A stretch of 64,000 bases of DNA from contig CAIZXS010000012.1 of NCBI GenBank assembly GCA_903937035.1, positions 18,314-82,313 on the forward strand. The letters run 5' to 3'. The translations under genes were made by a program, and so were the position numbers. Below the pieces are notes generated by a model. The model made no database searches. It saw nothing but the letters and a program-made list of their open reading frames with translations, and was not told where the DNA came from. Origin of the DNA: an uncultured bacterium (GTDB taxonomy: Bacteria > Patescibacteriota > Minisyncoccia > Moranbacterales > UBA2206). Below are positions 6,363 to 48,718 of the stretch, piece after piece; the first letter of the stretch is position 1, and each line of letters opens with the position of its first letter.

Positions 6363-7610
6363 ATGTCAACTACTAAAATTGCTAAAAAACTAAAAAGTCT
6401 GCCAACTTCTCCTGGTGTCTACATCTTCAAAAATGATGCGGAGGTTATTTTATATGTGGGAAAAGCGACGTCGCTAAAAGACAGGGTTTCGTCATATTTT
6501 CAAAGTCGCAGTGGCTATGCTCGGCCAATCGAGATGTTTATGGACCAAGTCGCGGATATTGAAGTTCGGAAAACAGAAACAGTCCTCGAGGCATATATTT
6601 TGGAGCAGGAACTGATCAAGAATTGGCAGCCGAAGTTTAATGTGGATGGAAAAGATGATAAATCATTTTCTTATGTTGCAATTACAAAAGAAGATTTTCC
6701 ACGCATATTATTTTTACGAAAAAGAGAGATAGATCAAGATAGCGAAATAAAATCAAAATTTAGCAAAATCTATGGGCCATATATCTCAAAGAAAAATATT
6801 GAAATCGCACTGAAGATTCTCAGAAAAATTTTTCCTTATCATTCCAAAGTGCAAAAAACAGAGAAGGGTTGTTTGGATTTTCAGATTGGACTTTGTCCTG
6901 GGCCGTATGCTGGGGCGATTTCGAAAGATGATTATGCGAAAAATATTAGGGGAATCAAGATGATTTTAGCGGGGAAGAAAAAAGGTCTTATTGCCAAGAT
7001 GAAAAAGGAAATGTCGGATCTGAGTGAGAAACAAGAATTTGAAAAGGCTGGGAAGGTGAGAAATGCGATTTTTGCGTTGCAGTATATTCGCGATATTGCA
7101 CTCGTGTCATATAGTATGAAACATGAAACATATAACAAAAATGCAAATACAAAATCATTTCGCATCGAGGGTTATGATATTTCGAATATTTCTGGACGGT
7201 CCAGTGTTGGGTCTATGGTTGTTTTTGATAATTCTCAAGGGGAAATGGTAGCGAACAAAAGTCAGTATCGCAAATTTAAAATTAAAACGGTGGAAGGTGC
7301 GAATGACACGGCTTCAATGGCGGAAATTTTGGGGCGCAGATTTGGGAATAATTGGCCGCGGCCAGATCTCATAATTTTAGACGGTGGACAAGGGCATCTC
7401 ACTGCTGTGAGGCGTGTGCTCAAGAATTTTCATCTGGAAATTCCACTGCTCGCTGTCGCCAAGGGACCAAAGCGCAAAAAACTAGACCGCTATGCTTTCG
7501 GCAGTGTGCCGGAAATTTCGGACGAAATCATCGAACGCGTCAGGGATGAGGCGCATCGGTTTGCGATTACGTATCATAAAAAATTGCGGGGGAAGAGTTT
7601 TATGGAATAG
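6363..7610 (+). CDS. uvrC: Short UvrC (GIY-YIG + UVR + RNase H-like endonuclease domains; no C-terminal (HhH)2 domain)
   Basis: 'PTSPGVYIFKNDAEVILYVGKATSLKDRVSSYF' is GIY-YIG. 'EFEKAGKVRNAIFALQYI' is the UVR motif. 'RIEGYDISNISGRSSVGSMVVF...YRKFKIK...DDTASMAEILGRRF' is the second nuclease domain. Ends right after the 'RFAITYHKKLR' motif. Confidence 0.8.
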   Translation: MSTTKIAKKLKSLPTSPGVYIFKNDAEVILYVGKATSLKDRVSSYFQSRSGYARPIEMFMDQVADIEVRKTETVLEAYILEQELIKNWQPKFNVDGKDDKSFSYVAITKEDFPRILFLRKREIDQDSEIKSKFSKIYGPYISKKNIEIALKILRKIFPYHSKVQKTEKGCLDFQIGLCPGPYAGAISKDDYAKNIRGIKMILAGKKKGLIAKMKKEMSDLSEKQEFEKAGKVRNAIFALQYIRDIALVSYSMKHETYNKNANTKSFRIEGYDISNISGRSSVGSMVVFDNSQGEMVANKSQYRKFKIKTVEGANDTASMAEILGRRFGNNWPRPDLIILDGGQGHLTAVRRVLKNFHLEIPLLAVAKGPKRKKLDRYAFGSVPEISDEIIERVRDEAHRFAITYHKKLRGKSFME

Positions 7611-10700: not shown

Positions 10701-13700
10701 GACGCTAGTGTTTTTCCGACTTGGACGGGAGTAGGAAGTCTTGGGACTAATGCTGATGCCGTCTACAATCCGGAGCAAAGTGAAATTGGAACGATTCCGC
10801 TGACCGATATCTATAACTATGACAATACGGGAGGTGTCTTTTCAGTGAACTACCAATCCGCATCTTCGTGGACAATTTTTGGTGATGGAGCAAATACGGA
10901 AAATAACGATGCGGTCTATTTCGGTGATCAGGGAAACACGCCAATCTATGCCTTGGAGTTTAATATTGGAACGGCTATTGGCGCGACTGCTAGTCGAATT
11001 TGGGAATATTGGAATGGATCGGCTTGGACTGAATTTGTTCCAAAATTTGGTTGGAAATATGTCCCGCGCGGAACGAATAATTATGGAGTGGGGGAATATT
11101 GTATCCCGTTTAATGCTGATCCGATATATCCCACAGCCACTGTTCAAATGACGGACACAAACACGCTTTTTGCTCCAGGGCAATACGTGAAAATTAAAGA
11201 CAATGATTCGGCGACCATAATTAGGCGCATTTCCACGGTGACAGCCGGAGCTCCGGCCAATGTAGTTTTCACTGAAATTATTCCGAGTGGCTACACAATT
11301 GCTCAGTCGGCCAAAGTTTGCATTTCAAACGGCGGTCAATGGCTGCCGATGGCGGCAAGTGATTTATTTTCTCAAACCGGGCGTACGATGATTTCTTGGA
11401 ATGCTTGGGATATGCCAAGCGCGGCAAAAACGACAGTCAACAGCACGAATGCTTATTGGGTGAGAAATCGTATTTCTGATTTCACATCTTGGACAACCGC
11501 GCCAATAAATCAGACAACTTCAGTCAGCATGCAAGGAGTGGAAAATGTGAACTCAGAAAATCTGACTGTTTCCAGTTCGGTTAGCGAAGCGAAGATAAGT
11601 CAGCTTTCCAACGGAGTTTCTTTTGATCCCAATGAAACCTGGACCCTTCGATATGATGATAATTCTACAGCTGTTTCAACTCTAAAAACTACTCGCTGGT
11701 ATGAATCGCAACTTGCTTCCTGGGGAACGGCGCATCGTTGGCTCAGTCCCAATCCGGATGGGGAAACTTCTGCTTACTATGAAAAAAATTCACAGGAAGC
11801 CAACTGGCATAGTCTCAACGGTGATTTTTCTTGGACTGATCAAAGTGTCTACGCTAAAGTCTATATGAATCAGCCAGTAGACGCGACAGTGGGAAGGCGC
11901 GTGGGAATATTTTTGCGTCAAGATGGTGATGATTATGGCTATGCTGCTTACATAACTAAATCAACCACCGTTTCTACCTTGGGTTGGTATTCAACTGCGC
12001 TCGGAGCAGAAACGGCAATTGGTACGGCAACTAACATCACCTTTAATGCTAATCAGTGGTATTGTTTGCGCGCTGAAGCAAATGGCACAACTCTTCAGGC
12101 CAAATTTTGGTCACCAGTTTCAGAAGACGCCGATTGTAATGGTGATATCAATGAACCAGGGACTTGGACAGAATCAGAAATAAATCAAACCGCTTTTATT
12201 GCCGGACGATTCGGTTTGGCGGCGGACATAATGCTGGCGCGTTTTGATGATGTAACAGTGAAAAACACAGCTGGCACAGAAACCTGGTTTAATGATAATT
12301 TCAATGATACCGGTTGCTGGAAGGTAATTGGTTCCATTCATGGAAGTCAAGGATGTGCCTATAATTCAGTCCCATTCACTTCTAGCTATCTTAATTTTAC
12401 GCTAAAACATCGAGGGGGGGTGCAATCCGGAGAAACTGGAATCAACGCGATAATCGGCCCATTGAATGCTCCGGAAGAAGGCGATGAAATTTATCTTTCT
12501 CCCTTTGAGCGGGGATCAAGTATCGGACTTGATGAGGCCGTGGGCATCACCACTTCTGACGCAAAAACTAAATATGAAAATTGGGATTTTGTCTATAACT
12601 CAACTTCCGGAAAATATGATGTGACCGGTTCGCAATATGGAGCAGCTGGGACGGCTACACCCGGAGCGACCTATACCTCTCCGGATAGCGAGGTGACCTT
12701 GAGAATAAAAGCGGGAACACCGGTTGGGCCAAAGTTTGGCAATCGAGCAGCTTATTTTCAAAACAGTTTTCAAAGAGGGGTGGGAAATTTTACCGGACTC
12801 AATAATCAATCTTCGGCCATTATCATTCAACCAACCTGGGTAGTAGCTGGTTCAGCCACTGGGTATAATGTTGAAGGAATTGGCGGGGTAGCAACACAAA
12901 AAGGCACAATGGATTTTTGGTTTAAGCCGAATTTTTCCGGCAGTCCTGACTACATACAGTATCTGTTTGATTATGCTCCCAATGGAAATACGGATAGGAT
13001 TTTTGCGCGAATTATGCCCAATGGCGTAATTGAAACTGTGGTTGCCCCGACTTTTGGAGTTGGAGCGACAGGAAAATTGGTCAAATCTTTTTCTGCAACC
13101 GCTGGTCAATGGTATCATTTCCGTTTAGCCTGGGAAGATTCTGATGCTGGACAGCTTAATATTAAAAAGGCCTGGATTGATGGCGCGGCTTTTACGAGTG
13201 CCAGTCAAGGGACAGCCTTGGGAGCGAGAGCGGCTAATGCGGGTTATTTGCGGCTTGGTAATTCTTGGCAGTACAATGCCGGCTTTGATGGCGCGATGGA
13301 TGAGTTCGCTATTTTTGACGATGCTGTCGATACTTCTAGCAGTTGTGACTGGGCATCTTCAGTGGCATTTACTGTTCCCACTACTCCTTGGACCAATGGG
13401 CAAACGGCGGGATGTACCACTGGGGGCGGAGAAGTGAGAACGGGGAATATCATATTTTTGACTCATTTTGACAATGCTTTTGAAAAACAAAAAGGGACAA
13501 TGATGCCGGATTATTTTATTGGACATCCGGCGATGGTTTTCACTAATGGCGCGGAGACACTGACTGGAGACCGGCTTCGTGTGGTGACGTATCCCAAGAG
13601 AACCAGGATTTGGATGGACAATACCGGATCGCAATATACCCCCGCGGCCAGAATCAAATATTCCGAAGGCTATAATATTGGAACCGCTCCCGGAACGGAA

Positions 13701-16700
13701 ATTGGCTGGGGGACAACTTTTCAATATCATCATAGAGCTGCTTCCGATAGCACTAGTCAGCCGATAACTTCACCGATTCTCAACCTAAGAAAACAGATAA
13801 GAATTTGGTCAGACGAAGATGTGAATGTGGCCAATTCTACTGCGCCGATTAATCAGGGATATGGATCACTGCTGTATTGGCCGAAAGCCATTGATGTTAA
13901 TCATATGGAACTTTCCCAATTGTATTATGGTTTTTATCTCTCCGGGAATCCTTTTACGACCAGCTTGCCATACCCCACTCAATATATTCGAAAAAGTGCT
14001 TTTAATAATGTGCAATACTATAATATTTACACTCTTTCCAAAACATTAGGCACTCAGGTGATTGATGATAATAATTTTTCCGCCCAAAGTGCCAATTATT
14101 ATCCTTTTCGAGAAGATACTTCAGCCAACATCACTTTTTCCAATAACTATGTCACGGGTTATTCTTCCGGCTATTTTAACTATTTAAATGGAGGAAGAAT
14201 CTTTAATATTTCTGGAAATAAATTTCTCAATGCTTATTACCCAGTCAGTCTTTTGGCAGGAACGGCCAAGGTTACCATTGCTAATAATGAATTTTGGCGC
14301 TTTCGGCGAGGCATTACGCTTAATGGAAACTCATTCATTCCGATGTCGGGGAATTCCTTTGATGGCGGAACTTCCTCGGAAACCAGCAATGGCTATTACG
14401 GAACAGGCATCTATGTGGCGCCAAGCTCTAGTAATGTAGAGGTGACTGATTCCAATTCAACCTTTGGAAAATCAATTTGGAATGAAGCCGATGTTTCCTT
14501 AGTTCCTGATACCACCTCTTGGCTCGCTGGTTCACTCTTGCGCTATACCGGAGAAAATTCTTCTTTCAATAGTAACTTCCACTATCTAGGCAACTCTACG
14601 CAAGATAAATTCGGTGGTGAATATTTGGCTACCGCTATTCCGGGAGTGGATGTTCGCATGGGGACAGGAAAGGATATTGTTAATTATACTAACTATGGGC
14701 TGATGAGAACGACTGGCCCAAATCTTATCGACACGACAGTTAGAACGTCTGGCGGGTATGCCTGGAGAATGGAATCAACTTCCAAAACTGATGCCTTGGA
14801 ATATACGGCCAAGGTGGTGGGTGTGGCGGGAAAGCCCCTCGCTATCACGGGGTATATCAGGATGAATGCAAATTACGGCACAGCTAATTTGCCAACAGTG
14901 ACTGTTTCCGGGCTGGGGATGACAGGCGCAAATCTTTCGTGGACAGCGAGTGCTACCGCTGACAGTTGGCAACAGTTTGTTATTTCTGGTACCCCAACAG
15001 AATCAGCTCTTGCTACGGTAGCTTTGTCAGTCAAGTCTGAGCCAACTGTGGCCGATTCAGGAACAGCTGAAAATGTTGATGACGGGCAAGGAATAAATGT
15101 GCCGACTCTAATTGAAGATGCAGATAAGAATTGGACTTGGAATCAGTGGACAGGTTACAAAATGCGAGATGACCAGGGCTTCATTTTTGACATTATTGGT
15201 AATACCGCAACCAGATTATTACTAAAAGGTACGCGGATTCCTTTCAGCAACACCTTGCCTACTCAGCCGTATGGTGGAATTTATGAAATATATTCTCCGC
15301 CCTATGTGTATCTGGATGATATTTCCGTTCTTTCTGGGACAGTGGATACGGGAACACTGGATTTCTATTCTCAGGGACAGCCGGTTTCTCCTTGGCTCTC
15401 GACCGGCCTAACAGCGGAAAATATTTGGGGAGCTCAATATTCCACTTTTGCTGATATCACCGGATCATTTGGTCAGTTGCTCAATGATTCCCTTGTTGCA
15501 AAATATTCTCGTGTGTCAGATCTGTCTCCAACTTTGACTGAATTCGACACCGACCTGGATTCCGCGACTGATGATTTCTATAATAATGGAGTAATAATTT
15601 TCACTGAAGGATTAAATGAGGGTGTGATGAGAAGAATTTCTGATTATGCGGGAGCTTCAAAAACAATCACAGTTGATCCGGCTCTGCCACTTATTCCATC
15701 TGACAATAATCGGTTTGCGATTATTGCCGCGACAGCTTCGGCCAGTGGTTCCGGCGGTGGGGCGACTGCTGCTGAGATTTGGAGTTATGTCTCGAGAACT
15801 CTGACGGATGCAACTTTGAATTCCGGAAGCTTGGCTACTGCGGCTGATGTGGCGAATATCCGTGCGGACATTACCAGTGTCCTGACTGAGCTTGGCACAG
15901 GTAATATTTCTGCCATTAAAACTAAAACCGATAGCATTGATTGGTCAGATGTGACCGGATTAGTCACTACGGCGGGCGAAATAAAAGCTAAAACGGACTC
16001 GATCAATTGGTCTGACGTGACGGGAATTGTGACAACTGCCGGGCAAATTAAATCCAAAACTGATACGATCGATTGGGATGCCGTGACTGCCATTAAAACT
16101 AGCACTGATACAATTGCTTGGAGCGATGTAACCGGCATTATTACCAGTAGTGGTCTCATTCAAGCTAAAACTGATACGATTAACTGGAGTGATGTGACGG
16201 GCATTAAAACTGCGACGGATAATATTGATTGGTTGGATATTTCTGCCATCAAAACCAAAACCGATACAATCGCATGGAGTGATGTGACCGGTATTAAATT
16301 AAACACAGACACGATTTCCTGGGGTGACATTACTACAATTAAAGCCAATGTAGCGACCTTGATTGCGGAAATTGGCACTGGCAATATTTCTGCCATTAAA
16401 ACAAGAACTGACAGCATTAATTGGTCTGATGTCACCGGCATCATAACTTCTGCTGGCGAAATTAAAGCCAAAACAGATACAATCGATTGGGCAAATGTCA
16501 CAGGTATCAAAACTAAAACAGATACAATTGATTGGGATAATGTTACAGGCATCAAAACAAAAACCGATACAATAGCTTGGGGTGATATTGCTGTTATCCA
16601 GTCATCAATTGATGCGTTAAATGACATTTCTGCGGCTGACATTTGGACCTATGCCACGCGAACAATTACGGGTGATGTTGCGCTCACGGCTGATTCTCGA

Positions 16701-19700
16701 AAGGCGATTTGGGACACGGCTTGCACAATTCTCAACACTTCCGGAAGTATTGGAAAGCAGGTGTGTGAAAATCTGGACATTAAAGTTTCCGAAGCGGGGG
16801 GGGCAGGTGGTACTACGCTTACGGCGGCTGATGTTTGGAATTATACCACTAGAACGATAACTGGCCTGACTGATCCGGCACTTTCTGCTTTGGCCAGCAG
16901 TGTTTGGGATAATGCTACACGGACGCTTTCATCCTATGGTAATGATATAACTGCGCAGGAAGTTTGGGACACATTGACCTCAAGCCTCACGACAATTGAT
17001 TCAGTCGGAAAACTGCTTGTGACAAATGTTGATGAAACGATTTCTTCTCGCGCAACTCAGGCGAGCGTGGACGCAATGGCTTCTAATTTGGCGACGGTGC
17101 TTTCAGAAATCGGGACTGGCAATATTTCCGCGATAAAAACAAAAACGGACACAATCAATTGGAGCAATGTGACAGGACTTGTGACTACTGCTGGTGAAGT
17201 TAAGTTGAAGACTGACACAATCAACTGGAGCGATATTGGAGCGATCAAAACAAGCACTGACACGATTGATTGGGATGACATTACCACAATCAGGCTCAAA
17301 ACCAATACTATCGAGTGGGGCGATATTGCGGATATCAAATCCAATGTCGCGATCCTTATTTCGGAAATTGGAACGGGCAATATTTCCGCCATCAAAGCGG
17401 GAACGGACACAATTAGTTGGTCTGATATTACCGGACTCATAACCACAAGTGGAGCAATAAAATTGAAAACCGACACGATTGACTGGAACAAAGTTGATGC
17501 GATAAAAACTAAAACGGACACAATCAGTTGGGATGATGTTACAGGTATTAAATTGAAAACGGATACGATTAATTGGACAAACATTGATACGCTTAACTCG
17601 CGAGTGGATACCACCATTTCTTCGCGTGCCTCGCAGGCCAGTTTGGACGCGCATGAATCAGCCGATGCTACCTTTAGAACGAATACTACGGAAAGTCTGG
17701 GTGAAATTTCAACTGACGTGACCAATTTAGTTTTGAATGTGGGAGAGATCCGCACGAGTCTTTCAGCGATTGAAACTAAGATTGATACGATTGGAGCTAA
17801 TCTGAATTCAGTCGATGATAAAATTGACATCCTTGATACTAATGTGGATAGTATTAAAAATACTGCCGAAGACACGAATATTAAGGTTTCTGCTATCCAG
17901 ACAGTCGTGAACAATATTTTAAATAAGTGGGGCTCTTATTCCGCCGCTGATATTATTGGTTATGTTGACGCGCTGGAAGGTTATGTCGGGCAACCGGATG
18001 ATGATTCTTTGCAGGAAACATTATTTGGTCGCCTAAAAAAACTGGACGGATCAGCTGGTGGTGGCGGTACGCTTGATTTGGTCTATGCGCAAGTGCAAGC
18101 TACGCACAATAAACTGTTGTCCGTGGAGAGCGATCTTGGCTTTGAAGGTAAGACGACTAGTGCGTATGATGAGATTGCTGCGATTAAAAATTATGTGGAT
18201 ACGGTTGAAAGCGGGATAAATAATTTGGATAGTCGCACTTCCAGCATTGCCTCTTCTGTCTCAACTGTTTCAAATGACCTCAAAGATGTAACTGGTCAAA
18301 TCGGCAAGGTGGATGTTGGCTCTTTTGATTCCATATTTGAAGTGCAAAAAACTGACATTGAGTCTTTGAAAAACAAGGTATTGGAACTAAAAGCGCTGGC
18401 AGATATTAATCGACAACTGCTGGAACGCACCGTAGATGAGCCCACGGTCAAGGTGATGATGGAATGGGGCTCGGTGATTATTAAATTTATTATTGTTAAT
18501 CCGTCTGACTCGAAAGAACAAAAGGTGCCATTTAAGGCCTATCTTCCAAAGGAAGTCCGCCAGGAATACGTCATGGATCTGGGCGGTATGGAGCTTAATT
18601 ATGACACAACGACGGAACAGTATTATGTAACGGCGGATATTTTTCTGAAATCCGGTCAAGCAATTACTCGCGCAGTTGAGATTAAGGATATTTGGGTGTT
18701 TTCTGACGAAGAGATCGCGTCTATCAGAAAGCAAGCTGATGAGTTGAGTGCTGGACTAACGGACAACTCCTATAAAACTCAAGCCATTACACTTAAGACC
18801 GATATCAATACTCGTCTCGATAGGATTGTCAGGAAGCAAAAGGACAATAACGCTACTCCGCAAGATCATATTTTAGCCTATCGGGAAAATCAAGAAGAAA
18901 TGAAAGCGGTAACAGAAAACACTAAAGCGCTGAAAGATTTATTGCTTAACTCTGGTGTTGGCAAAAATTTTCTGGCTTCAATCGGTGGAATTCAAACTTT
19001 TGCCACCTGGGGGATTGTCTTGGCTTTGATTTTTGGTATGGGCGCTCTGGGATTTTTCTATTATGCTCTCTGGAGAAAAAAAATTATTAATGCTAATAAA
19101 CCCGATCCTAAGGAAGATGAGACTATCAAGACCGACAAAGAGTCTGATCAAGAATTAGAAACACAAATCATTGAGCTTCCGACGCCATCGCCGGCACGCC
19201 TAGTCGGGGTTTCTCTTTCTTGGCAAAAAAAGATTTTCACCGGCTTAGTTGTTTTAGCGAAAGACTTAGTGAGATTTATTGGATATATTTTGAAAAAAAT
19301 AATTTCTCTTTCGATAAAAATTTGGGTGACAGCTCTCATATTAGCGGTGCTGTTTGTAGGGGTTTCTACTCTTTGGCACTATCGAGAAAATGAAAAATTG
19401 AACGTGCAAAAAGAAAAACAATCGATTAGCTTGCCAGAAAACCAAGCAAAGGAAGATATTGAAAATTTAAATGAAAGGGGCAGAAAAGTAACTAAGATGG
19501 TAGATGAAATAAATAAAAAAGCAGAAGAAAAAACCAATACAAATCAAAAAATCGATGCTTTATTAGAAGATCAGGAGCCAGCGATGGATGAGTCAGGAAA
19601 GGCAGAAAAAGAAAATAAATTGGTGATAAAGAATACTCCAACTAATTTTCTCAATGTTCGCAAGGATTCATCAGTAGAGAGTGAGATTGTTGGCAAGGTT

Positions 19701-20543
19701 TATCCGAAAGAAAGTTATGTCTATTCAGCTGAAAAAAGTGGTTGGTATGAAATTATTCTTAAAGATAGTCAGAAGGGTTGGGTTAAGGGGCAGTACGTGG
19801 AGCTATCTGCTAGGGGAGCTGTTCAATCTGATGGGCTTGCTGCCCAGGATACTCCGGAAAATCAACTGGTGGTCAAAAATACGCCCACAGGATATCTTAA
19901 TGTGAGAGACGCGGCCTCTGCCGGTGGCGCTCTTTTGGGAAAAGTTTACCCAGGAGAAAAATATATTTTTAGTGAGAAAAAAGATGGTTGGTATAAAATT
20001 AAAATTAAGGATGATGAAGAGGGTTGGGTTATTGGTGAATATGTTGATGCTAAGGGTCCATTGGCGCTTGATGATTTGGACAGAGCGGATAAAAAAGAAG
20101 TTTTAGGCGCTAGCGTCAGCACGGATAGGTTCATTGTTATTAGGCAAACATCTTTAAATTTTGTGAATGTCTATGAAAAGCCAAGCTACACGGAGAGAAT
20201 TATTTCAAAGGCGTATCCTGGTGAGGATTATGCTTTTTTGGAAGTTCAAAGCGGGTGGTACCGGGTAGTGCTTGGCGATAAGCGAGAAGGCTGGATTTTA
20301 GGTGAATTTTTGAAAGTGGAAGACAATGGAAAAACTCAGGATGATGATCAATGGATAGATGTGCAGCCAAGTGATGGGTCGTATGTCAATATTCGCAAAG
20401 ACGCCACGGATTCATCGGCGATTGTGGAGAAGATTTATCTTTCCAGTCATTTTTTGAAATTAGAGGAAAAAAATGATTGGGTAAAAATAAAATTGTTGGA
20501 TGGGAATGTCGGTTGGGTTTTAGGAAAATTTGTGAATAAATAA
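7722..20543 (+). CDS. Giant (~4270 aa) membrane-anchored surface protein: N-terminal TM, LamG/ConA-like lectin domains, parallel beta-helix repeats, two blocks of 15-aa tandem repeats, coiled-coil, two TM helices, four C-terminal SH3b domains
   Basis: Single uninterrupted ORF. LamG-like 'GTMDFWFKPNF...WYHFRLAW...LNIKKAWIDG...MDEFAIFDDAV'. Beta-helix 'NISGNKFLNAYYPV...IANNEFW..ITLNGNSFIPMSGNSFDG'. Repeats 'IKTKTDTIDWSDVTG'. TM 'FATWGIVLALIFGMGALGFFYYALW'. Four SH3b repeats of 'LVVKNTPTGYLNVR...GKVYPGE.Y....K..GWYKIKL.D...GWV.G.YV'. Exact start codon uncertain (7722, ~7869 or ~7890). Confidence 0.85.
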   Translation: MRMRKIKKTRKIALRLRRIFFKIRQFKLRLFWVVFSAGAKSLPGRFCAGMKKIPGTMANLPRNIRNLKWVNIKTFSRRNYPLLLAIVFLTPAFILLFLFVNSRIHKQTTQAAPFTGAVRVSKENTTLSTAGGWLKSMAFSGDGINGDGDYFQPIHPGARATTEGAAGTLAVGEVVMPTITANAYDAAGAVFIPWKPNTNGNFYGVTLAVANLNTTAANLNVVVELLRFPTASYTGTPPTVVWSNYVACSAVNTCVYAADTVIERTQVMRFDQSISGEAAYPGQYGIHYMDFRFDPLAVTTTTHYGFRVYYNSLTTASTWPRNGASKPTVNAANFGLGITDVDTANALTVTVPLANTTQSSYAVAINSAPAVGQAAAARTQNEHWSGTYSDSSGNWTIAGSVSGVQTAKLTSSTDGGTGVAWVNDGVTKTTLSADATATTKLCVSSIAGFAVNQYIDIWDADTTSIQRIIASVSSADVGCSNGPSINVTATLAATDKFTLSKNATVARAIWKLRIIQGAEEAFTENMPTTTKLCVADASRFSVEATAGSSNINIWDDNSIIAARRITTISFADASCASLNSITIDTAITAGTYTIDKNARVAEISANFSNNGTPTDGNIFRFTTLNMGQNPAKIGNGNSFVLLYGKTAAPATSAVNYPWIANQRHAFFVAYGDADTTAPADGDMAIIGGGAADPDSGDSVNLSNDLVLGNISPHTVMVDKNFDMPMAYTGATGGGVGSGLTTPATASYGGSGFVSMLISTRAKLAVSDAINQRYRLTAPGRILLSSGASLELGSSVDPLLKTTTVDLYQDSVGPLVSTVLTSDSTTNTYIDMASTAGFYIGDVVMIKDNNSVPTTRIIAAVTSSTRLTFTAAMVAGYTVAQGATVSRGPNTDVPTGADRRSFIYSARAQAARVNMYSQGADDYRTPRADLAVDIDGNIDTGYLGAQQTAAGNVWMDAAGSLAGDWSALDPLSVAQGNSYAVNDNDSSIGMGANDDASVFPTWTGVGSLGTNADAVYNPEQSEIGTIPLTDIYNYDNTGGVFSVNYQSASSWTIFGDGANTENNDAVYFGDQGNTPIYALEFNIGTAIGATASRIWEYWNGSAWTEFVPKFGWKYVPRGTNNYGVGEYCIPFNADPIYPTATVQMTDTNTLFAPGQYVKIKDNDSATIIRRISTVTAGAPANVVFTEIIPSGYTIAQSAKVCISNGGQWLPMAASDLFSQTGRTMISWNAWDMPSAAKTTVNSTNAYWVRNRISDFTSWTTAPINQTTSVSMQGVENVNSENLTVSSSVSEAKISQLSNGVSFDPNETWTLRYDDNSTAVSTLKTTRWYESQLASWGTAHRWLSPNPDGETSAYYEKNSQEANWHSLNGDFSWTDQSVYAKVYMNQPVDATVGRRVGIFLRQDGDDYGYAAYITKSTTVSTLGWYSTALGAETAIGTATNITFNANQWYCLRAEANGTTLQAKFWSPVSEDADCNGDINEPGTWTESEINQTAFIAGRFGLAADIMLARFDDVTVKNTAGTETWFNDNFNDTGCWKVIGSIHGSQGCAYNSVPFTSSYLNFTLKHRGGVQSGETGINAIIGPLNAPEEGDEIYLSPFERGSSIGLDEAVGITTSDAKTKYENWDFVYNSTSGKYDVTGSQYGAAGTATPGATYTSPDSEVTLRIKAGTPVGPKFGNRAAYFQNSFQRGVGNFTGLNNQSSAIIIQPTWVVAGSATGYNVEGIGGVATQKGTMDFWFKPNFSGSPDYIQYLFDYAPNGNTDRIFARIMPNGVIETVVAPTFGVGATGKLVKSFSATAGQWYHFRLAWEDSDAGQLNIKKAWIDGAAFTSASQGTALGARAANAGYLRLGNSWQYNAGFDGAMDEFAIFDDAVDTSSSCDWASSVAFTVPTTPWTNGQTAGCTTGGGEVRTGNIIFLTHFDNAFEKQKGTMMPDYFIGHPAMVFTNGAETLTGDRLRVVTYPKRTRIWMDNTGSQYTPAARIKYSEGYNIGTAPGTEIGWGTTFQYHHRAASDSTSQPITSPILNLRKQIRIWSDEDVNVANSTAPINQGYGSLLYWPKAIDVNHMELSQLYYGFYLSGNPFTTSLPYPTQYIRKSAFNNVQYYNIYTLSKTLGTQVIDDNNFSAQSANYYPFREDTSANITFSNNYVTGYSSGYFNYLNGGRIFNISGNKFLNAYYPVSLLAGTAKVTIANNEFWRFRRGITLNGNSFIPMSGNSFDGGTSSETSNGYYGTGIYVAPSSSNVEVTDSNSTFGKSIWNEADVSLVPDTTSWLAGSLLRYTGENSSFNSNFHYLGNSTQDKFGGEYLATAIPGVDVRMGTGKDIVNYTNYGLMRTTGPNLIDTTVRTSGGYAWRMESTSKTDALEYTAKVVGVAGKPLAITGYIRMNANYGTANLPTVTVSGLGMTGANLSWTASATADSWQQFVISGTPTESALATVALSVKSEPTVADSGTAENVDDGQGINVPTLIEDADKNWTWNQWTGYKMRDDQGFIFDIIGNTATRLLLKGTRIPFSNTLPTQPYGGIYEIYSPPYVYLDDISVLSGTVDTGTLDFYSQGQPVSPWLSTGLTAENIWGAQYSTFADITGSFGQLLNDSLVAKYSRVSDLSPTLTEFDTDLDSATDDFYNNGVIIFTEGLNEGVMRRISDYAGASKTITVDPALPLIPSDNNRFAIIAATASASGSGGGATAAEIWSYVSRTLTDATLNSGSLATAADVANIRADITSVLTELGTGNISAIKTKTDSIDWSDVTGLVTTAGEIKAKTDSINWSDVTGIVTTAGQIKSKTDTIDWDAVTAIKTSTDTIAWSDVTGIITSSGLIQAKTDTINWSDVTGIKTATDNIDWLDISAIKTKTDTIAWSDVTGIKLNTDTISWGDITTIKANVATLIAEIGTGNISAIKTRTDSINWSDVTGIITSAGEIKAKTDTIDWANVTGIKTKTDTIDWDNVTGIKTKTDTIAWGDIAVIQSSIDALNDISAADIWTYATRTITGDVALTADSRKAIWDTACTILNTSGSIGKQVCENLDIKVSEAGGAGGTTLTAADVWNYTTRTITGLTDPALSALASSVWDNATRTLSSYGNDITAQEVWDTLTSSLTTIDSVGKLLVTNVDETISSRATQASVDAMASNLATVLSEIGTGNISAIKTKTDTINWSNVTGLVTTAGEVKLKTDTINWSDIGAIKTSTDTIDWDDITTIRLKTNTIEWGDIADIKSNVAILISEIGTGNISAIKAGTDTISWSDITGLITTSGAIKLKTDTIDWNKVDAIKTKTDTISWDDVTGIKLKTDTINWTNIDTLNSRVDTTISSRASQASLDAHESADATFRTNTTESLGEISTDVTNLVLNVGEIRTSLSAIETKIDTIGANLNSVDDKIDILDTNVDSIKNTAEDTNIKVSAIQTVVNNILNKWGSYSAADIIGYVDALEGYVGQPDDDSLQETLFGRLKKLDGSAGGGGTLDLVYAQVQATHNKLLSVESDLGFEGKTTSAYDEIAAIKNYVDTVESGINNLDSRTSSIASSVSTVSNDLKDVTGQIGKVDVGSFDSIFEVQKTDIESLKNKVLELKALADINRQLLERTVDEPTVKVMMEWGSVIIKFIIVNPSDSKEQKVPFKAYLPKEVRQEYVMDLGGMELNYDTTTEQYYVTADIFLKSGQAITRAVEIKDIWVFSDEEIASIRKQADELSAGLTDNSYKTQAITLKTDINTRLDRIVRKQKDNNATPQDHILAYRENQEEMKAVTENTKALKDLLLNSGVGKNFLASIGGIQTFATWGIVLALIFGMGALGFFYYALWRKKIINANKPDPKEDETIKTDKESDQELETQIIELPTPSPARLVGVSLSWQKKIFTGLVVLAKDLVRFIGYILKKIISLSIKIWVTALILAVLFVGVSTLWHYRENEKLNVQKEKQSISLPENQAKEDIENLNERGRKVTKMVDEINKKAEEKTNTNQKIDALLEDQEPAMDESGKAEKENKLVIKNTPTNFLNVRKDSSVESEIVGKVYPKESYVYSAEKSGWYEIILKDSQKGWVKGQYVELSARGAVQSDGLAAQDTPENQLVVKNTPTGYLNVRDAASAGGALLGKVYPGEKYIFSEKKDGWYKIKIKDDEEGWVIGEYVDAKGPLALDDLDRADKKEVLGASVSTDRFIVIRQTSLNFVNVYEKPSYTERIISKAYPGEDYAFLEVQSGWYRVVLGDKREGWILGEFLKVEDNGKTQDDDQWIDVQPSDGSYVNIRKDATDSSAIVEKIYLSSHFLKLEEKNDWVKIKLLDGNVGWVLGKFVNK
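15910..16600 (+). repeat. Tandem 45-bp (15-aa) coding repeats, block 1, inside giant gene
   Basis: Repeated units aaaacngatacnattgattggagtgatgtgaccggnatt encoding (I)KTKTDTIDWSDVTG with occasional 7-aa inserts. The higher-order unit EIGTGNISAIK recurs. Confidence 0.9.
17110..17600 (+). repeat. Tandem 45-bp (15-aa) coding repeats, block 2, inside giant gene
   Basis: Same KTDTI(D/N)W(S/D)DVTGI unit as block 1. EIGTGNISAIK occurs at four positions across the two blocks. Confidence 0.9.
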
Positions 20544-20566
20544 GGCTTATCAAGGCAAGAAATAAT

Positions 20567-20700
20567 GAATTATGCGTTTGTCTGGAAAAAGTCCGCACGT
20601 ACATTTCATCTAGCATTTCAAGGTATTTGGTAAAACAAAGAGGGAAAACTAAAAAGAGGAAATTATGCTTTTAAGATTTTTTTCGGGAAAATGCGTAATT
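20567..20700. repeat. ~135-bp repeat, copy 1 of a direct-repeat pair bracketing the 20708-22112 cassette
   Basis: gcgtttgtctggaaaaagtccgcacgta...ttcaagg...ttttttcgggaaaatgcgtaa aligns at ~75-80% identity with 22130-22266. Terminal segments ccggaaaaagt / acttttttcgg are complementary. Confidence 0.65.
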
Positions 20701-20707
20701 CCTAAAA

Positions 20708-21175
20708 CTAATAAAGTAAGCTGGCGATAGTTCGATTGTAGGTGTAGTGGATGAGTATCGCTAAGGATAGTGCAAAAGGAAAGATCCAGCGATACTTTTG
20801 GGAAAAGAAGAGCATTAGTAGTATAGTAAAAACATGTAGTGTAGAGGTCAAGAGGAGTCTTTCTATGAAAATAAGCGGTGAGGCGTAGAGATTAGAGTTG
20901 GAAAGATAAAAGATATTTTCCGAAAAAGCGAAAAATAATCCAATCAAAATAGACAATTGCAATTGGAAAGTTCTCTTTCCTGGGATAGTTAGAATGAGCA
21001 GAACAAAAACAGCTTTTATGCCTTCTTCAATGATATAGGGATAGGGAAGAATCTTTTCAATTGGTAGCAAGATAAGCGAGCTCAGCAGTGCGGCAAGTGG
21101 TAGGGCGATTGCCAAGTAGAGAGATTCGGCTGATTTTTTTTCACCTTTTTCATTTTTTGTTTGAAATGAAGTCAT
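20708..21175 (-). CDS. PrsW-like/CPBP-like intramembrane metalloprotease family protein (155 aa)
   Basis: Polytopic membrane protein with motifs 'IIEEGIKAV' (EExxK), 'FAFSENIFY' (FxxxE) and 'HYTYN' (HxxxN). Confidence 0.45.
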   Translation of the reverse strand: MTSFQTKNEKGEKKSAESLYLAIALPLAALLSSLILLPIEKILPYPYIIEEGIKAVFVLLILTIPGKRTFQLQLSILIGLFFAFSENIFYLSNSNLYASPLIFIERLLLTSTLHVFTILLMLFFSQKYRWIFPFALSLAILIHYTYNRTIASLLY

Positions 21176-22112
21176 AAGTAATTTTTGATAAATTAGAAAT
21201 CAGTTCTTTTGATTTTGACAACTCTAAATCTTTAGTCATGATGCAAAGATAGTAGGGACTACTATTCTCGTAGACAATTCCGCAATCAGAAATGCCATCC
21301 GGGCGCTCACCGTACTTATGCGCAACCTGAATTTCCGGTGGAACTCCGGCAGAAATAAGGCTTTCCACTTGAGTGTCTGTGGTAATGCTGAGGGCTTTTT
21401 CTGAAAGTTCCGGGGAGACATAGGTTGCGAAATAGAGAGCCTTAAAAAGGCGAGTATATCCGCGCGGAGTGACAGTTGGTTCGCTTTTTTCCTGATACGG
21501 ATTAGGGATGCCCACATGAGCAAAAATAGCATTTAGTTCAGAGGGGGAGAGCTGTCGACGCAAGACATTTTTTGCCGTATTATCTGAAGCAAGGATCATT
21601 TCTTCTAGTAGATTCCAAAAAGATATTTCATAACCAGCACCTTTTTTGTATAATTTACCAGAATTGCTATCGAGATCTTCCGGAAGAATTTTCATGCTAT
21701 CTTTGAGAGAAATTTCTTCTAGCGTAACTTTTTTCAGGATGCCAAGCATTATGGGAATTTTTAAAAGGCTGGCTGGCGTAAATCCTGTTTTCTCATTGAT
21801 GCCAAGCCAAGCTCCTGTGGTTGAATCTTGAAGAAAAAAACCAATATTTTGCTCCGCTCCAAAATGGGAGATTTCTTTTTCGATTGCCGGCTTTAAATCA
21901 TTGAATTGGATAATAAGCGAATCGGTTTGGACATTAGAGTCTATCGGTACTTGGCTTTTTTGGTTGACAAGCTGGTAGTGTTTTTCTGGCTGACTAGTCA
22001 AGATGCTATTGGTATGTTTTGACTTTGTGTATAAGAATATATTCAAGATTAGTGAAAGAAAAAACAAAAACAAGACCAGCGCAGTTGCTCTATTTTTAAA
22101 AAATAAATTCAT
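21150..22112 (-). CDS. Class A beta-lactamase-like / PBP-family serine hydrolase with N-terminal TM anchor
   Basis: SxxK 'ASLLK', SDN 'LASDNTAKN', plus N-terminal hydrophobic helix. Overlaps the downstream PrsW-like gene by 26 bp (operon). Confidence 0.6.
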   Translation of the reverse strand: MNLFFKNRATALVLFLFFLSLILNIFLYTKSKHTNSILTSQPEKHYQLVNQKSQVPIDSNVQTDSLIIQFNDLKPAIEKEISHFGAEQNIGFFLQDSTTGAWLGINEKTGFTPASLLKIPIMLGILKKVTLEEISLKDSMKILPEDLDSNSGKLYKKGAGYEISFWNLLEEMILASDNTAKNVLRRQLSPSELNAIFAHVGIPNPYQEKSEPTVTPRGYTRLFKALYFATYVSPELSEKALSITTDTQVESLISAGVPPEIQVAHKYGERPDGISDCGIVYENSSPYYLCIMTKDLELSKSKELISNLSKITYDFISNKK

Positions 22113-22129
22113 GGTCGATTTTTTGGTTA

Positions 22130-22266
22130 ATATGCAATTTTACAACTTACGCGTTTGTCCGGAAAAAGTTCGCACGCATGTCTTTCTCGGCACTTCAAGG
22201 CTTTTAGTAAAGCACGGAAAGAAAGCCAAAATGAGGAAACCGCGCTTTTAAACTTTTTTCGGGTAA
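22130..22266. repeat. ~135-bp repeat, copy 2 of the direct-repeat pair
   Basis: acgcgtttgtccggaaaaagttcgcacgcatg...ttcaagg...ttttttcgggtaaatgtgtaag; see copy 1. Confidence 0.65.
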
Positions 22267-22395
22267 ATGTGTAAGTGCCAAGTTTATGAAATTATTATAG
22301 CAGGCCATACGAAGAAAATCCAGGATTTTCACACTTTGACTTATCTTGAAAAAAAAGCTAAAGTCGGGGTTGAGATCAGAAGAACGAAATACTTT

Positions 22396-23070
22396 ATGTC
22401 AAAAATCCCAATCTCAAAAATCATCCGTTCCAAGAGAAAAAACATCGCGCTTGTGATTTCACACGACGCGACCTTGATTGTGCGTGCTCCAATGCGCACC
22501 CCACTACACTATATCGAAAAACTGGTCGAAGAAAAATTTGACTGGATTGAAAGAAAGATGCGAGAATTTGAGAAGCGTCCTAAGGCCGACAAGAAAACTT
22601 TCTCGGAAGGCGAAGAGTTTCTTTATTTTGGGAAAAAATACAAATTAGCGCTGACCAATGGACTCAGGATTGAAGCTACTGAGGATTTTGAATTACTTTT
22701 CCCCAGAGTTTTTCTTTGGCGGGCGCATCATCGAATGCACGATTGGTATAAGAAGCAGGCGCATAAAGAAATTTCCGAGCGCACAAAAATAATCGCTGAT
22801 AAATTAAACCTCAAATATTCATCGCTCAAAATTTCCAATGCCAAAACTAACTGGGGATCATGCGGTCCGAAAAATAGTTTGAATTTCAATTGGCGGCTCA
22901 TTATGGCGCCTGAGGGTGTCATTGATTATGTCATCATCCATGAACTGATGCACATTCTTGAAAAAAATCATTCGGCAAAATTTTGGAACAAAGTCGCGGC
23001 TATGATGCCGGATTATAAAACCGCCAGAAAGTGGCTGAGGGAAAATAGTAAGGTTTTGACGTTGGAATGA
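22396..23070 (+). CDS. YgjP/DUF45-family metal-dependent hydrolase (WLM/SprT-like HExxH)
   Basis: 'WGSCGPKNSLNFNWRLIMAPEGVIDYVIIHELMHILEKNHSAKFW' with HELMH. The ORF-track start at 22267 lies inside the upstream repeat and is probably spurious; 22396 (MSKIPIS...) is preferred. Confidence 0.7.
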   Translation: MSKIPISKIIRSKRKNIALVISHDATLIVRAPMRTPLHYIEKLVEEKFDWIERKMREFEKRPKADKKTFSEGEEFLYFGKKYKLALTNGLRIEATEDFELLFPRVFLWRAHHRMHDWYKKQAHKEISERTKIIADKLNLKYSSLKISNAKTNWGSCGPKNSLNFNWRLIMAPEGVIDYVIIHELMHILEKNHSAKFWNKVAAMMPDYKTARKWLRENSKVLTLE

Positions 23071-23164
23071 TTAACAGCTTGCCAAAACCCAAAAGCTAGT
23101 GTAAAATTTGTTCCTAGTAATGCTATTGACGTCTTTTTTAAAAAAATATAACTCTTTTTTGTCT

Positions 23165-25972
23165 ATGTCAAAAAACAAACCCAAGGATCGTAGTCAAATT
23201 ATCGTTCGCGGAGCACGTGTGAATAATTTAAAAAATGTCGACGTGGAAATTCCGCGTGACAAGCTAGTTGTCATTACGGGACTTTCTGGCAGCGGAAAAT
23301 CTTCCTTGGCTTTTGATGCAATTTATGCCGAAGGTAATCGTAGATACTTGGAGGGCATGTCGAGTTATGCGACACAGTTTTTAGATGTATCAGCGAAACC
23401 GGATGTGGACAAGATTGAAAATCTTACCCCGACAATTTCTATTGATCAAAAAAGCATCGCACGCAGTCCGCGCTCAACTGTTGGAACGTTGACAGAAATT
23501 TATGATTATCTGCGCGTGCTTTATGCTAAGACTGGAATGCCGCATTGCCCGCATTGCAAAACACCTCTAGAGAAAATTACTAATTCAGAGGTCTTGGAAG
23601 ATATTCTTAATTCTCCTGATAAAACAAATATCGCGATTCTCGCGAAACTTAATGGCAAGGAGCGAAATTTGAAAGAGACCTTAAAAAGTATTAGCCAGCT
23701 TGGCTATGCACGACTTCGATTTAAGGGGAAAATAATGTCACTTACTGAGGCATTGGCGCTAAATAATGTTGACGCGGATGAGACTTGCAACGCTGAGATT
23801 GTGATTGATCGATTGGTCTTGAATAAAAAAAATCCTGATCGAGAAAGGATTTTGGATTCAATCGAGACTGCTTTCAAGTTGGGCAAAGGTATGGCTGTGG
23901 TAATCAAGGATAACGAAGCCGAGAAGATATATAATCGTGATTTCGTGTGCAAGAAATGTTTTTTTGAAGTAGCCGATATTACCCCGAAACATTTTTCTTT
24001 TAATAGTCCTGAGGGTGCTTGTCAACATTGTTCTGGGCTTGGTATAATCAAGGAAATTGATGAAGATCTCTTGATTCCAAATAAAGACCTAACGCTCGCT
24101 GAGGGGGCAATTTTGTCGTGGAATAAATCAGGCGGGAGATCAAGTGTGCTCGCGAGTGGAAATAATATCTTGAAAATGCTGGGAGACAAGTATGGATTTT
24201 CTGTCGATATTCCGGTGAGAAAAATTAGTCGTGAACATCTGAATATTGTGCTTTATGGTTCGAATGATCCCAAGATAATCTTTGAAGGAGTCATTCCGAC
24301 AATGAAAAAGAAATATGAAGAATTGAATTCCAACTATCTGCGGAGTGAGATTGAAAAATACATGATTGAAAAGGTTTGTCCGCTTTGTTCAGGCAAGCGA
24401 TTAAAAGGTGAATATCTCTCAGTTCTTGTAGCTGGGAAATCGATTGATCAAACAGTGGATTTATCTCTTGTGGATTTTTCTATTTTCCTGGAAACACTAG
24501 AAAAAACAAATATTAGTTCGGCCAAGAAAAATATTATTTTACCGTTAGTCAAAGAAATGAAAGCGCGTAGTGCCGCACTTCAGAATGTGGGCTTGGGCTA
24601 TCTTTCGCTTTCGCGCTCGGCTAATTCTATTTCCGGCGGAGAAGGGCAGCGTATCCGTCTTGCAACTCAGATCGGTTCGGAACTTTCTGGCATCACTTAT
24701 GTTTTGGACGAGCCTTCTATTGGCCTGCATAATCGTGACACGGAAAAGCTGATTGCGACAATGGAAGAATTGCGTGAAGCGGGGAATTCATTGATTACTG
24801 TGGAGCATGATGAGCAAATAATTCGCAAAGCGGATTGGATTATCGATATGGGGCCTGGTGCTGGTGAGGAAGGTGGAGAAGTGATTTTTTCCGGCGACCT
24901 TGTTAAACTTTTAAAATCAAAAACTTTGACGGCGCAATACTTGAATGGAAAAAGACACGTTGGCGATAAAAAAAAGGCGCGCAAGGGTTCTGGAAAATTT
25001 ATTAAAATTCAGGGAGCGACGGAGCACAACTTGAAAAATATCGATGCGAATCTTCCCTTGGGAAAATTTATCTCGCTTACCGGTGTTTCTGGTTCAGGTA
25101 AATCAACATTGGTAACTGATATTCTGTCGAAAGCCTTGGCGAAACATTTTTTCAACACAAAAGAAACTCCTGGTAAACATAAGAAAATTAGTGGGATGGA
25201 AAGTATTGATAAGGTGATTAGTATCAATCAATCTCCAATCGGTCGTACGCCAAGATCAAATGCCGCAACGTATACTGGTGTATTTTCACTTATCCGTGAA
25301 CTGTTTGCACAGACGGAAGAATCACGTACTCGAGGATATGATGCTAGTCGGTTCAGTTTTAATATGAAAGGCGGGCGTTGTGAGGATTGTCAGGGCGAAG
25401 GAAAAAAGAAAATTGAGATGCATCTTCTGCCGGATGTTTATGTTGCCTGCGAAACATGTAATGGCGCAAAGTACAATCAAAGAACGCTAGAAATTGAATA
25501 TCGCGGCGTGAGTATTGCTGCGGTACTTGATATGAGTGTGAGTTACGCGTTGGCCTTTTTTAAAAATTCTAAATTAGTGACAGAGAAATTAGCCACACTG
25601 GAAAAAGTTGGTCTGGGCTACCTTAAATTGGGGCAAAGTGCAGTAGATCTTTCTGGTGGAGAGGCGCAACGGATTAAGCTGGCGACAGAGCTTTCTCGTC
25701 GTGCGACTGGTAAGACGCTCTATATTTTAGATGAACCAACGATTGGTCTTCATTTTGAAGATATTCGAAAGCTGTTAGGCGTGCTTGACGCGCTTGTGGA
25801 CAAAGGCAATACTGTGCTCGTTGTTGAGCATAACGTGGACGTGATTCGTAATTCTGATTGGGTGATCGATCTTGGTCCAGAAGGCGGATCGGGCGGAGGA
25901 GAAATTGTTTTTGAGGGGTCACCGGCGGAACTGAAAAAATGCTCAAAGAGTTGGACGGGGAAATACCTCTAG
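23165..25972 (+). CDS. Second excinuclease ABC subunit A paralog (UvrA-like), full length
   Basis: '[55 protein letters not shown]'. Two Walker A motifs, Zn-finger Cys pairs and [16 protein letters not shown]. Start taken at MSKNKPK (23165). Confidence 0.9.
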
Positions 25973-27207: not shown

Positions 27208-27363
27208 GATATCCTCCTCGCCCTTAGGGAGAGGATGTCACGAGCACGTGACAGGTGAGGGTTCTTGCTAATACGGGGAAGCTGTTGGTTATATTGAAAG
27301 CTTTGGTGTTATTGATAGCACCCTCATCCGCCCTTCGGGCACCTTCTCCCGGAGGGAGAAGAG
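27208..27363. repeat. ~155-nt multi-hairpin repeat element, copy 1 (inverted relative to copy at 48800-48953); candidate structured RNA or MITE
   Basis: Hairpins atcctc..gaggat, gtcacgagcacgtgac, gtgagggt..accctcat, gcccttcgggc and cttctcccggagggagaag. Copy 2 reverse complement aligns with compensatory changes. Confidence 0.6.
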
Positions 27364-27400
27364 AAATTAAATGACAATTTGTTTAATTTATAGAAAATAA

Positions 27401-43396: not shown

Positions 43397-43605
43397 TGTC
43401 ATTCCCGCACCCATTTCACGAGCATGAGTTCCGGCGGCCTGCCTGCCGGTAGACAGGGAATCCAGTTTCTGGTCTATATTAAAATACGAAATCGTTCTGG
43501 TTAGAATCTTTTGCTTATCAAGACGCGAAGATGGTTGTGCTTTATTGAGTTTTCCTACTAGATTCCCGCCGGAGTTTATGCTCGTGAAACGGGTGCGGGA
43601 ATGAC
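43397..43605. repeat. MITE-like palindromic element (~209 bp) with TIRs TGTCATTCCCGCACCC / GGGTGCGGGAATGACA and ~45-bp imperfect palindromic arms
   Basis: Terminal 16-mers are exact reverse complements. Subterminal catttcacgagcatgagttccggcgg / ccgccggagtttatgctcgtgaaacg are complementary. Abuts the tsaD stop codon. Confidence 0.7.
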
Positions 43606-43607
43606 AC

Positions 43608-48707: not shown

Positions 48708-48718
48708 CTAATGTGTGT

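Follow-up and report, generated by a model that had tools for sequence, protein, structure and literature searches.

The 64,000-nucleotide stretch of DNA analysed here (positions 18,314 to 82,313 of contig CAIZXS010000012.1, from an uncultured bacterium of the Moranbacterales), which as a whole will be called the window, carries two direct repeats on its + strand, copy A and copy B. As the initial annotation had described, they bracket an overlapping pair of genes on the minus strand, one encoding a PrsW-like membrane protease (20708-21175) and the other a penicillin-binding protein (PBP)-like protein (21150-22112). The question raised by this locus is whether the repeats delimit a cassette that was gained or can be lost by recombination, whether they are paired structured RNAs, both of which had been suggested, or whether they belong to another class of sequence. 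We consider it moderately likely that they are members of a new family of intergenic elements, imperfect palindromes of ~136-140 nt that resemble the ERIC and Correia repeats and are so far confined to Moranbacteria. A covariance model built from five copies recovered and aligned eight distinct full-length copies (alignment A9), and the bounds of copies A and B listed below are those of the covariance model.

20567-20702, + strand: hairpin repeat copy A, 136 nt (covariance model R1, 135.9 bits, E 1.7e-36)
20568-20594, + strand: 5' arm of the 27-bp basal helix of copy A (columns 2-29 of alignment A9)
20674-20700, + strand: 3' arm of the basal helix of copy A (columns 112-139 of alignment A9)
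22144-22278, + strand: hairpin repeat copy B, 135 nt (covariance model R1, 137.4 bits, E 6.3e-37)
22145-22171, + strand: 5' arm of the basal helix of copy B (alignment A9)
22251-22276, + strand: 3' arm of the basal helix of copy B, which holds the ATG at 22267 (alignment A9 and list of open reading frames)

The repeats are real, and the conserved blocks originally quoted for them are present in both; the coordinates first given were right for copy A, whereas those for copy B (22130-22266) lay ~13 nt too far to the left. BLAST aligned the two copies with 77% identity over 131 nt, a value that ranges from 73 to 79% with the alignment chosen. A 26-nt block at their 5' side, GCGTTTGTCNGGAAAAAGTNCGCACG, occurs exactly twice in the window and in none of 100 shuffled sequences, and neither nhmmer nor the covariance model detected a third copy in the 64 kb. 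Copy A occupies a 164-nt spacer between convergent genes, the stop codon of a giant-protein gene ending at 20543 and that of the PrsW-like gene lying at 20708-20710, 5 nt from the end of the repeat. Copy B is located in a 283-nt spacer between divergent genes, the PBP-like gene, which starts at 22112, 31 nt from the start of the repeat, and a YgjP-like gene with a probable start at 22396. The PBP-like protein is encoded by 14 contigs from several samples, which have the same arrangement and 100%-identical repeats, except for contig L004 and the record gERG7eSP.

Both copies fold as long hairpins, in agreement with the mutual complementarity of their terminal segments that had been pointed out before. 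The predicted RNA of copy A has a folding energy of -34.7 kcal/mol (z -3.84) on the + strand and of -16.5 kcal/mol (z -0.12) on the minus strand; for copy B the corresponding values are -48.1 kcal/mol (z -4.94) and -38.2 kcal/mol (z -2.91). The consensus fold of the two copies comprises 40 pairs, 4 of which are changed on both sides and 8 on one side through a G.U pair, none being broken. Over the eight distinct copies the basal helix (helix 1) has 27 pairs, is 95.3% paired and near-continuous, with a single insertion column, and shows compensatory changes at 6 pairs. Its positions are occupied in copy A by 19 Watson-Crick, 6 G.U, 1 A.C and 1 other combination, and in copy B by 21 Watson-Crick, 5 G.U and no A.C combinations. 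The covariation score was 0.289, compared with 0.206 ± 0.018 for shuffled alignments (none of 500 reached 0.289) and at most 0.13 for slid controls. RNAalifold applied to A9 gave 40 pairs, 10 of them compensatory, and added a small apical helix (UGGU/ACCA); A9 was fitted to the model, which favours structure, but plain MAFFT alignments show the basal helix just as clearly. Above this helix come conserved asymmetric internal loops and two or three short helices, and the apex is variable. Three unpaired blocks are conserved, namely CGCAC (5' side), GCUUUUAGG (3' side) and UUAGCAC; they are not complementary to each other, and the element therefore has a polarity. What stands of the structured-RNA proposal is thus a hairpin conserved through compensatory changes, and the support goes as far as the structure.

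No coding function emerged from the alignment. No reading frame is conserved across the copies, which contain stop codons in most frames on both strands, and a small conserved open reading frame (ORF) or a Shine-Dalgarno sequence followed by an ATG was discarded, as GAGGAAATTATG of copy A is not kept in copy B or in the other copies. In the Rfam search of the window only tRNAs reached the threshold. When the region 20400-22500 was searched at E<=10, one match fell on a copy, a chance match to a microRNA of 18 bits, where the gathering score is 94. The flanks of the copies showed no conserved promoter or terminator, including by consensus scan.

A search of relatives for further copies and for empty sites, recommended at the outset, yielded further copies at unrelated positions and empty versions of those positions. 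One scan of metagenomes, made with a core of 18 bases, yielded 24 loci, two of which were real, with full copies; the remaining 22 matches have the 18-mer alone in common, and a longer element with the same arms was not present among the 24. The GTDB species genomes, scanned with the pattern GGAAAAAGTNCGCACGN{12,22}TTCAAGG, gave one chance match, in a GC-rich deltaproteobacterial contig that has the pattern alone in common, two scans of viral contigs gave chance matches only, and blastn searches of plasmids, phages and Escherichia coli genomes gave no match to the repeat. The three host organisms are Moranbacteria, as judged from the source names of the homologs of their proteins. Copies are sparse, with two in the 64-kb window and zero to two per locus of ~20 kb.

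One of the two real loci is L032, whose sequence is also that of L045 and of a segment of the 50-kb contig L043. It carries two full copies as direct repeats, one in each spacer of a MacAB-like operon composed of genes for a membrane-fusion protein (MFP), an ABC ATPase and an FtsX-type permease, so that they bracket the ATPase gene. The same operon was collected from relatives through the ATPase (88-91% identity). Both spacers are filled in L043 and L044 (237 and 234-235 nt). In L046 and L047 a copy is present in spacer B only, which lies between the ATPase and permease genes, and spacer A holds an unrelated AT-rich sequence; in L048 and L049 the copy is in spacer A only, and spacer B holds a different, GC-rich palindromic element. 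In L050 and L051 both spacers are empty, with 12 and 17 nt. The other real locus (L039) has its copy between the stop codon of ArgS (protein ending in ...APEKM*) and the start of a gene for an AlkD-type DNA-alkylation repair protein, a junction that has no copy in L055 (54 nt) and L057 (23 nt). The element is thus present at orthologous sites in some close relatives and missing in others. Between the element and the start of the permease gene, L043 and L046 share a homologous flank of ~75 nt, and their spacer-B copies are therefore probably orthologous; orthology could not be read from identity alone, as values of ~70% do not separate copies at the same site from copies at different sites. We also observed that between L043 (10728-10863) and L044 (4447-4583), whose ATPase proteins are identical, the spacer-A copy is 100% identical, whereas the spacer-B copy differs at 7 positions inside the element and at 1 in ~100 nt of flanks, a pattern suggestive of gene conversion or of faster change in that copy alone.

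The gene pair itself was also followed in relatives. The nearest orthologous PBP-like/PrsW-like loci have 70% identity (L007 and L008) or ~58-60% (L009 and L010, and L011), and the pair usually adjoins the same kind of giant gene for a protein with SH3 domains, in reversed gene order in L009. No repeat was found at any of these loci by nhmmer or the covariance model, and L007 and L009 have no spacer at all next to the giant gene. More broadly, the pair is conserved across the candidate phyla radiation (CPR), the source names of the PBP-like homologs including also DPANN-type archaea. Since the pair is kept in relatives that have no repeats, it is, on this comparison of sequences, a conserved and vertically inherited neighbourhood to which the repeats would have been added in one lineage. 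A cassette thus fails as an explanation under the condition first set for rejecting it, because relatives carry the genes without the repeats and the repeats lie at unrelated positions in other Moranbacteria. Furthermore, copies A and B are no more identical to each other (73%) than either is to copies of another organism (74-77%), which argues that they are not the product of a recent duplication by cassette insertion. No recombinase, transposase, integrase or reverse transcriptase was found among the window genes. The repeat is therefore not to be taken as a cassette boundary, and the idea that the gene pair is a putative envelope-stress or antibiotic-sensing module is independent of the repeats.

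Contig L004 departs from the common arrangement in an unusual manner. Its positions 1-2668 include a part 100% identical to window positions 22211-20632, followed by DNA that the window lacks. Hairpin apices mark both limits of the shared part: the contig begins at that of copy B and departs from the window sequence at that of copy A. A record without DNA, gERG7eSP, has the same layout. The foreign part encodes a protein ending in a weak match to a T9SS-type sorting domain (E 0.0063, below threshold), which the junction cuts at profile position 68 of 75. We considered recombination at the apices of the hairpins as an explanation and set it aside, given that the foreign part does not occur in the window and that the sorting domain is cut at the junction. 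L004 is probably a chimeric join promoted by the hairpins, a view that offers no detailed explanation of why separate assemblies have the breakpoints in common.

We then looked at the age of the copies and at signs of mobility. Pairwise identities in A9 are star-like, between 64 and 77%, except for 83% between the two L043 copies and 96-100% between strain copies at the same site, and the arms are conserved at ~85%, compared with ~61-67% for the centre. The star-like identities and the better-kept arms argue against a recent burst and are consistent with persistence under constraint; from these sequences the copies look old and constrained, as expected from long persistence rather than from recent transposition or local duplication. 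Like MITEs (miniature transposable elements with inverted repeats), the element is small (<200 bp, the copies measuring 135-137 nt) and non-coding, has terminal inverted repeats and occupies sites that are filled or empty in related genomes, but it does not have 5'-TA-3' at both termini or a target-site duplication. No such duplication flanks any copy, and a TA dinucleotide is found at one end only, in 7 of 8 copies. Two other classes were examined and rejected. For integron attC sites, regular expressions for the RYYYAAC/GTTRRRY cores matched none of the eight copies with their 8-nt flanks on either strand, and the near-continuous basal helix has neither an unpaired central spacer nor extrahelical bases. 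For the template and variable repeats of a diversity-generating retroelement, copies A and B differ mostly by T/C and A/G transitions, which run both ways, both copies are intergenic, and the window contains no reverse transcriptase gene.

By analogy, the element is likened to the intergenic palindromic repeats of bacteria, which are closest to it in form and behaviour, and it is no proven MITE, because TA termini and target duplication fail and a parent element was not found. Bacterial MITE-like repeats are described as non-coding sequences of <200 bp with terminal inverted repeats, whose transcripts form long stem-loops (PMC2229807). ERIC has an orientation-dependent effect on mRNA stability (PMC2229807), Correia hairpins formed by the terminal repeats are presented as substrates of RNase III that alter the expression of adjacent genes (PMC2229807; PMC2649163), and REPINs are introduced as hairpin-forming miniature mobile DNA (PMC3116915).

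The likeness to ERIC (enterobacterial repetitive intergenic consensus) sequences, also named intergenic repeat units (IRU), which are imperfect palindromes of 127 bp, concerns the similar size, the single long stem-loop, the intergenic position in or beside transcription units, the low to moderate copy number and the presence or absence at orthologous sites. The Moranbacteria element differs in giving no blastn match in 5,426 E. coli genomes (20,395 records; word 11, E<=0.01), in its terminal helix of 27 bp, compared with the 7 contiguous bp listed for ERIC, and in having no TA target duplication; it also belongs to a different phylum. With the Correia or NEMIS elements of Neisseria, MITEs of 107-155 bp, it shares long terminal inverted repeats (24 bp in Correia, 27 bp in this element) and an intergenic location, Correia elements being often co-transcribed with genes. 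Correia elements have TA duplications, a binding site for IHF, outward promoters and hundreds of near-identical copies, none of which was demonstrated here, and the Moranbacteria copies are few and, apart from strain variants at the same site, 64-83% identical. REP/BIME and REPIN sequences are likewise palindromic, hairpin-forming intergenic repeats, often placed between the genes of operons. REP units are much shorter, and REPINs are doublets of a short palindrome, occurring in many copies alongside one RAYT gene; the window has no RAYT or IS200-like gene, and the arms of the element are not themselves palindromic. The sites of integrons and of clusters of attC sites lacking integrase (CALIN) are direct repeats with imperfect dyad symmetry that bracket genes, as these repeats do. 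They measure ~57-141 bp (e.g. ~123-126 bp for the Vibrio VCRs), keep their structure more than their sequence and fold in a strand-specific manner. The element, unlike these, has no R''/R' cores, a continuous basal helix, no integrase in the window, and brackets genes that are integral members of operons. A literature search on MITEs or attC sites in Patescibacteria or the CPR returned nothing relevant.

We favour the interpretation that the family once spread as a non-autonomous insertion element of small size, as ERIC, Correia and MITE-like repeats would have done, and that selection for the hairpin has maintained it since then. Because the copies lie inside or at the ends of transcription units, they would be co-transcribed with their neighbours. 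The long double-stranded stem would then act at the RNA level, most likely as a determinant of RNase III-type processing or of stability, with the ERIC effect on mRNA stability as the functional model, and at convergent gene ends, as for copy A, it may serve as a transcript-end structure. The bracketing of the PBP-like/PrsW-like pair would simply reflect elements that settled in neighbouring spacers.

Several points weigh against this interpretation. It assumes mobility for an element that has no target-site duplication and has TA at one end only, and the analysis found neither a parent insertion sequence nor a transposase with ends that match. The copy number is low, with 8 distinct copies in ~280 kb of Moranbacteria DNA and none in the GTDB species genomes by pattern search. 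No near-identical copies occur at different sites within a genome, unlike what a recent burst would leave, and because such copies are missing the empty sites may have arisen by deletion from an ancestral filled state. In two of the three organisms a pair of copies brackets one gene or operon, which could be non-random, and to find the two copies of the window two spacers apart among its 33 spacers is mildly so. Lastly, at each of the three sites inside operons, the strand that folds better runs antisense to the genes, so that the mRNA would carry the less well-paired version.

This last point bears on the alternatives, as it concerns the strand on which the fold is selected. Helix 1 contains 31 G.U against 5 A.C cells (13 against 5 columns, binomial p 0.048), and the window + strand folds better by 5.3 kcal/mol on average (p~0.07), with a large difference for copy A and none for three copies. 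The + strand, here called the sense strand, is modestly favoured for folding; in the window the giant gene and the YgjP-like gene are encoded on it, and the PBP-like/PrsW-like operon is antisense to it. The version carried by the mRNA still reaches -33 to -51 kcal/mol in most copies, and the functional molecule may be this version, or a separate sense-strand RNA or single-stranded DNA. Genes for small structured RNAs, transcribed on the sense strand from their own promoter and acting as trans or antisense regulators in a gene neighbourhood of no consequence, would account for both the strand bias and the polarity conferred by the conserved asymmetric internal loops, and since the sense strand is antisense at the operon-internal sites, a selected sense fold would need separate transcription. 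We nevertheless regard such genes as unlikely: the sense-orientation flanks have no conserved promoter or terminator, the Rfam search even at E<=10 assigned the element to no family, a given site has the element in some close relatives and not in others, an unusual pattern for a small RNA that is essential, and the strand bias is marginally significant, most copies folding well on both strands. More doubtful still, in our opinion, is that the element, instead of a decayed selfish repeat, would be a functional, orientation-specific CPR module whose selected fold, antisense to the genes, would operate as antisense RNA or as single-stranded DNA, typically in pairs that bracket a single gene or operon; in such a module the arms of the two copies might pair across the gene to excise or insulate the cistron, or might be the sites of an unrecognised recombinase.

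Recombination sites, either attC-like or targets of tyrosine or serine recombinases, that delimit an excisable or exchangeable cassette are a very improbable explanation. Direct repeats with an imperfect dyad, 0.8-1.4 kb apart, do bracket a gene or operon in two organisms, and the L004 contig breaks at the hairpin apex of both copies. The bottom strand of attC sites is the one that folds, and the better-folding strand of the element is, in a similar way, antisense to the bracketed genes. The missing attC cores, the near-continuous 27-bp helix and the absence of an integrase or recombinase from the window speak against this explanation, as do the single copies in L046, L048 and L039 and the fact that the gene bracketed in L043 encodes the ATPase of a three-gene transporter operon and is no independent cassette. 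In addition, PBP-like/PrsW-like synteny is conserved without repeats, and the 14 contigs with the PBP-like protein have one arrangement, apart from L004, which is probably chimeric, and gERG7eSP. Least credible of all is that the copies are cis-regulatory leader and trailer RNAs specific to the PBP-like/PrsW-like operon, e.g. as an envelope-stress sensor. Their placement would suit such a role, with copy B 31 nt before the PBP-like start and copy A 5 nt past the PrsW-like stop. However, the same element stands beside unrelated genes (ABC transporter, ArgS/AlkD), it is missing from orthologous operons, and on the operon strand copy A folds like shuffled sequence (z -0.12).

The preferred reading, an ERIC- or Correia-like intergenic repeat, places the element beside other hairpins of these genomes. 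In L055 the spacers on either side of the gene for ribosomal protein S5 measure 167 nt each (2973-3139 and 3644-3810) and hold two different long hairpins (-45.7 and -62.0 kcal/mol), and in L057 the same places have 22 and 27 nt. The palindrome in the ATPase-permease spacer of L048 (L048:10706-10929, GTCATCCTGAGCG...GAAGGATC...) is another example. Within the window, a 210-nt hairpin at 43397-43606, with 41-nt arms that are 90% complementary (TGTCATTCCCGCACCC...GGGTGCGGGAATGACA), takes up the 287-nt spacer that separates a second PrsW-like gene (42874-43320, minus strand) from TsaD (43608-44660, minus strand), and a short hairpin related to its arms (GTGTCATTCCCGCGGAGGCGGGAATCC) lies at ~48715-48740. 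A GC-rich palindromic family (…ACCCTCAYCYGYCCTTCGGRCAYCYTCTCCCGGAGGGMGARGAG…) has two strongly folding members, at 27214-27365 and 48800-48950, one upstream of GroEL and the other in a 731-nt spacer after a glycosyltransferase gene. As several hairpin families thus colonise the spacers of compact operons, brackets around single genes would arise readily, which makes the pair at 20567 and 22144 less special.

The genes next to the repeats are bracketed by them and are not part of the element:

20708-21175, minus strand: gene for a PrsW-like membrane protease, 155 aa (Pfam PF13367, E 5.6e-07, 29.7 bits, cut-off 23.5)
21150-22112, minus strand: gene for a class-A beta-lactamase-related serine hydrolase or PBP-like protein, 320 aa (Pfam PF13354, Beta-lactamase2, E 5e-43)
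22396-23070, + strand: gene for a YgjP-like metallopeptidase, with its probable true start (Pfam PF01863, E 2.1e-61)

The EExxK, FxxxE and HxxxN motifs are visible in the PrsW-like translation, and the SxxK (SLLK) and SDN motifs in the PBP-like protein, whose score is far under all curated beta-lactamase cut-offs of NCBIfam. The latter has 713 homologs at E<=1e-10, the best 120 of the 713 coming from CPR or DPANN-type archaeal taxa by source name; Moranbacteria are among the closest named ones, and the homologs belong to Patescibacteria. A second, weaker PrsW-like ORF of 148 aa (42874-43320, minus strand) appears to be a paralog of the first, with a PF13367 match under the cut-off (E 9.5e-04). 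The giant ORF (7722-20543, 4273 aa) combines SH3-type domains with a transmembrane region at the C terminus and contains repeats of ~158-208 nt at 15915-17548, and the finding of such giant genes next to the PBP-like/PrsW-like pair in several Moranbacteria suggests a functional link.

The YgjP-like gene is called as 267 or 244 aa depending on the assembly. Its longer form opens at ATG 22267, inside the conserved AAATG of the 3' arm of copy B, and the Pfam domain is complete from ATG 22396, residues 15-216 covering profile positions 1-206 of 207. That copy B creates a false start for this gene, as had been suggested, is hence plausible and no more firmly established than that: the upstream ATG does lie in the repeat, and the domain is whole without it. 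A gene call of 50 aa on the spacer-B copy of L043 (L043:10732-10884) looks, like the 267-aa YgjP call, to be an annotation artefact caused by the element.

The remainder of the window is of housekeeping character, with genes for two UvrA proteins, UvrC, an S24 peptidase, GroEL, a two-component system, a type IV pilus, TsaD, RecG, TGT and others. The two UvrA paralogs (2762-5755, 997 aa, and 23108-25972, 954 aa) have a 50-nt stretch in common at 74% identity, and UvrC (6363-7610) and the S24 (LexA-like) peptidase (1360-2019) accompany them in the window. A 168-nt tandem duplication in perfect register (55682-56017, 93% identical) was noted inside a 762-aa ORF without Pfam match (53875-56163).

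CPR genomes, of ~1 Mb, are thought of as streamlined. Moranbacteria carry several families of hairpin elements of 100-200 nt in operon spacers whose counterparts in close relatives measure 12-27 nt, and one such family appears to have been under long structural constraint. To judge from its sequence, this family is previously undescribed, a known kind of element in a phylum for which we found no such repeats described. For annotation, its members attract spurious small ORFs, the ATG in copy B being plausibly a false start of the YgjP-like gene. The covariance model now defines the family and can be used to survey CPR genomes. If it is true that these hairpins tune the processing of mRNA in operons, they would constitute an unstudied regulatory layer in organisms with few known regulators.

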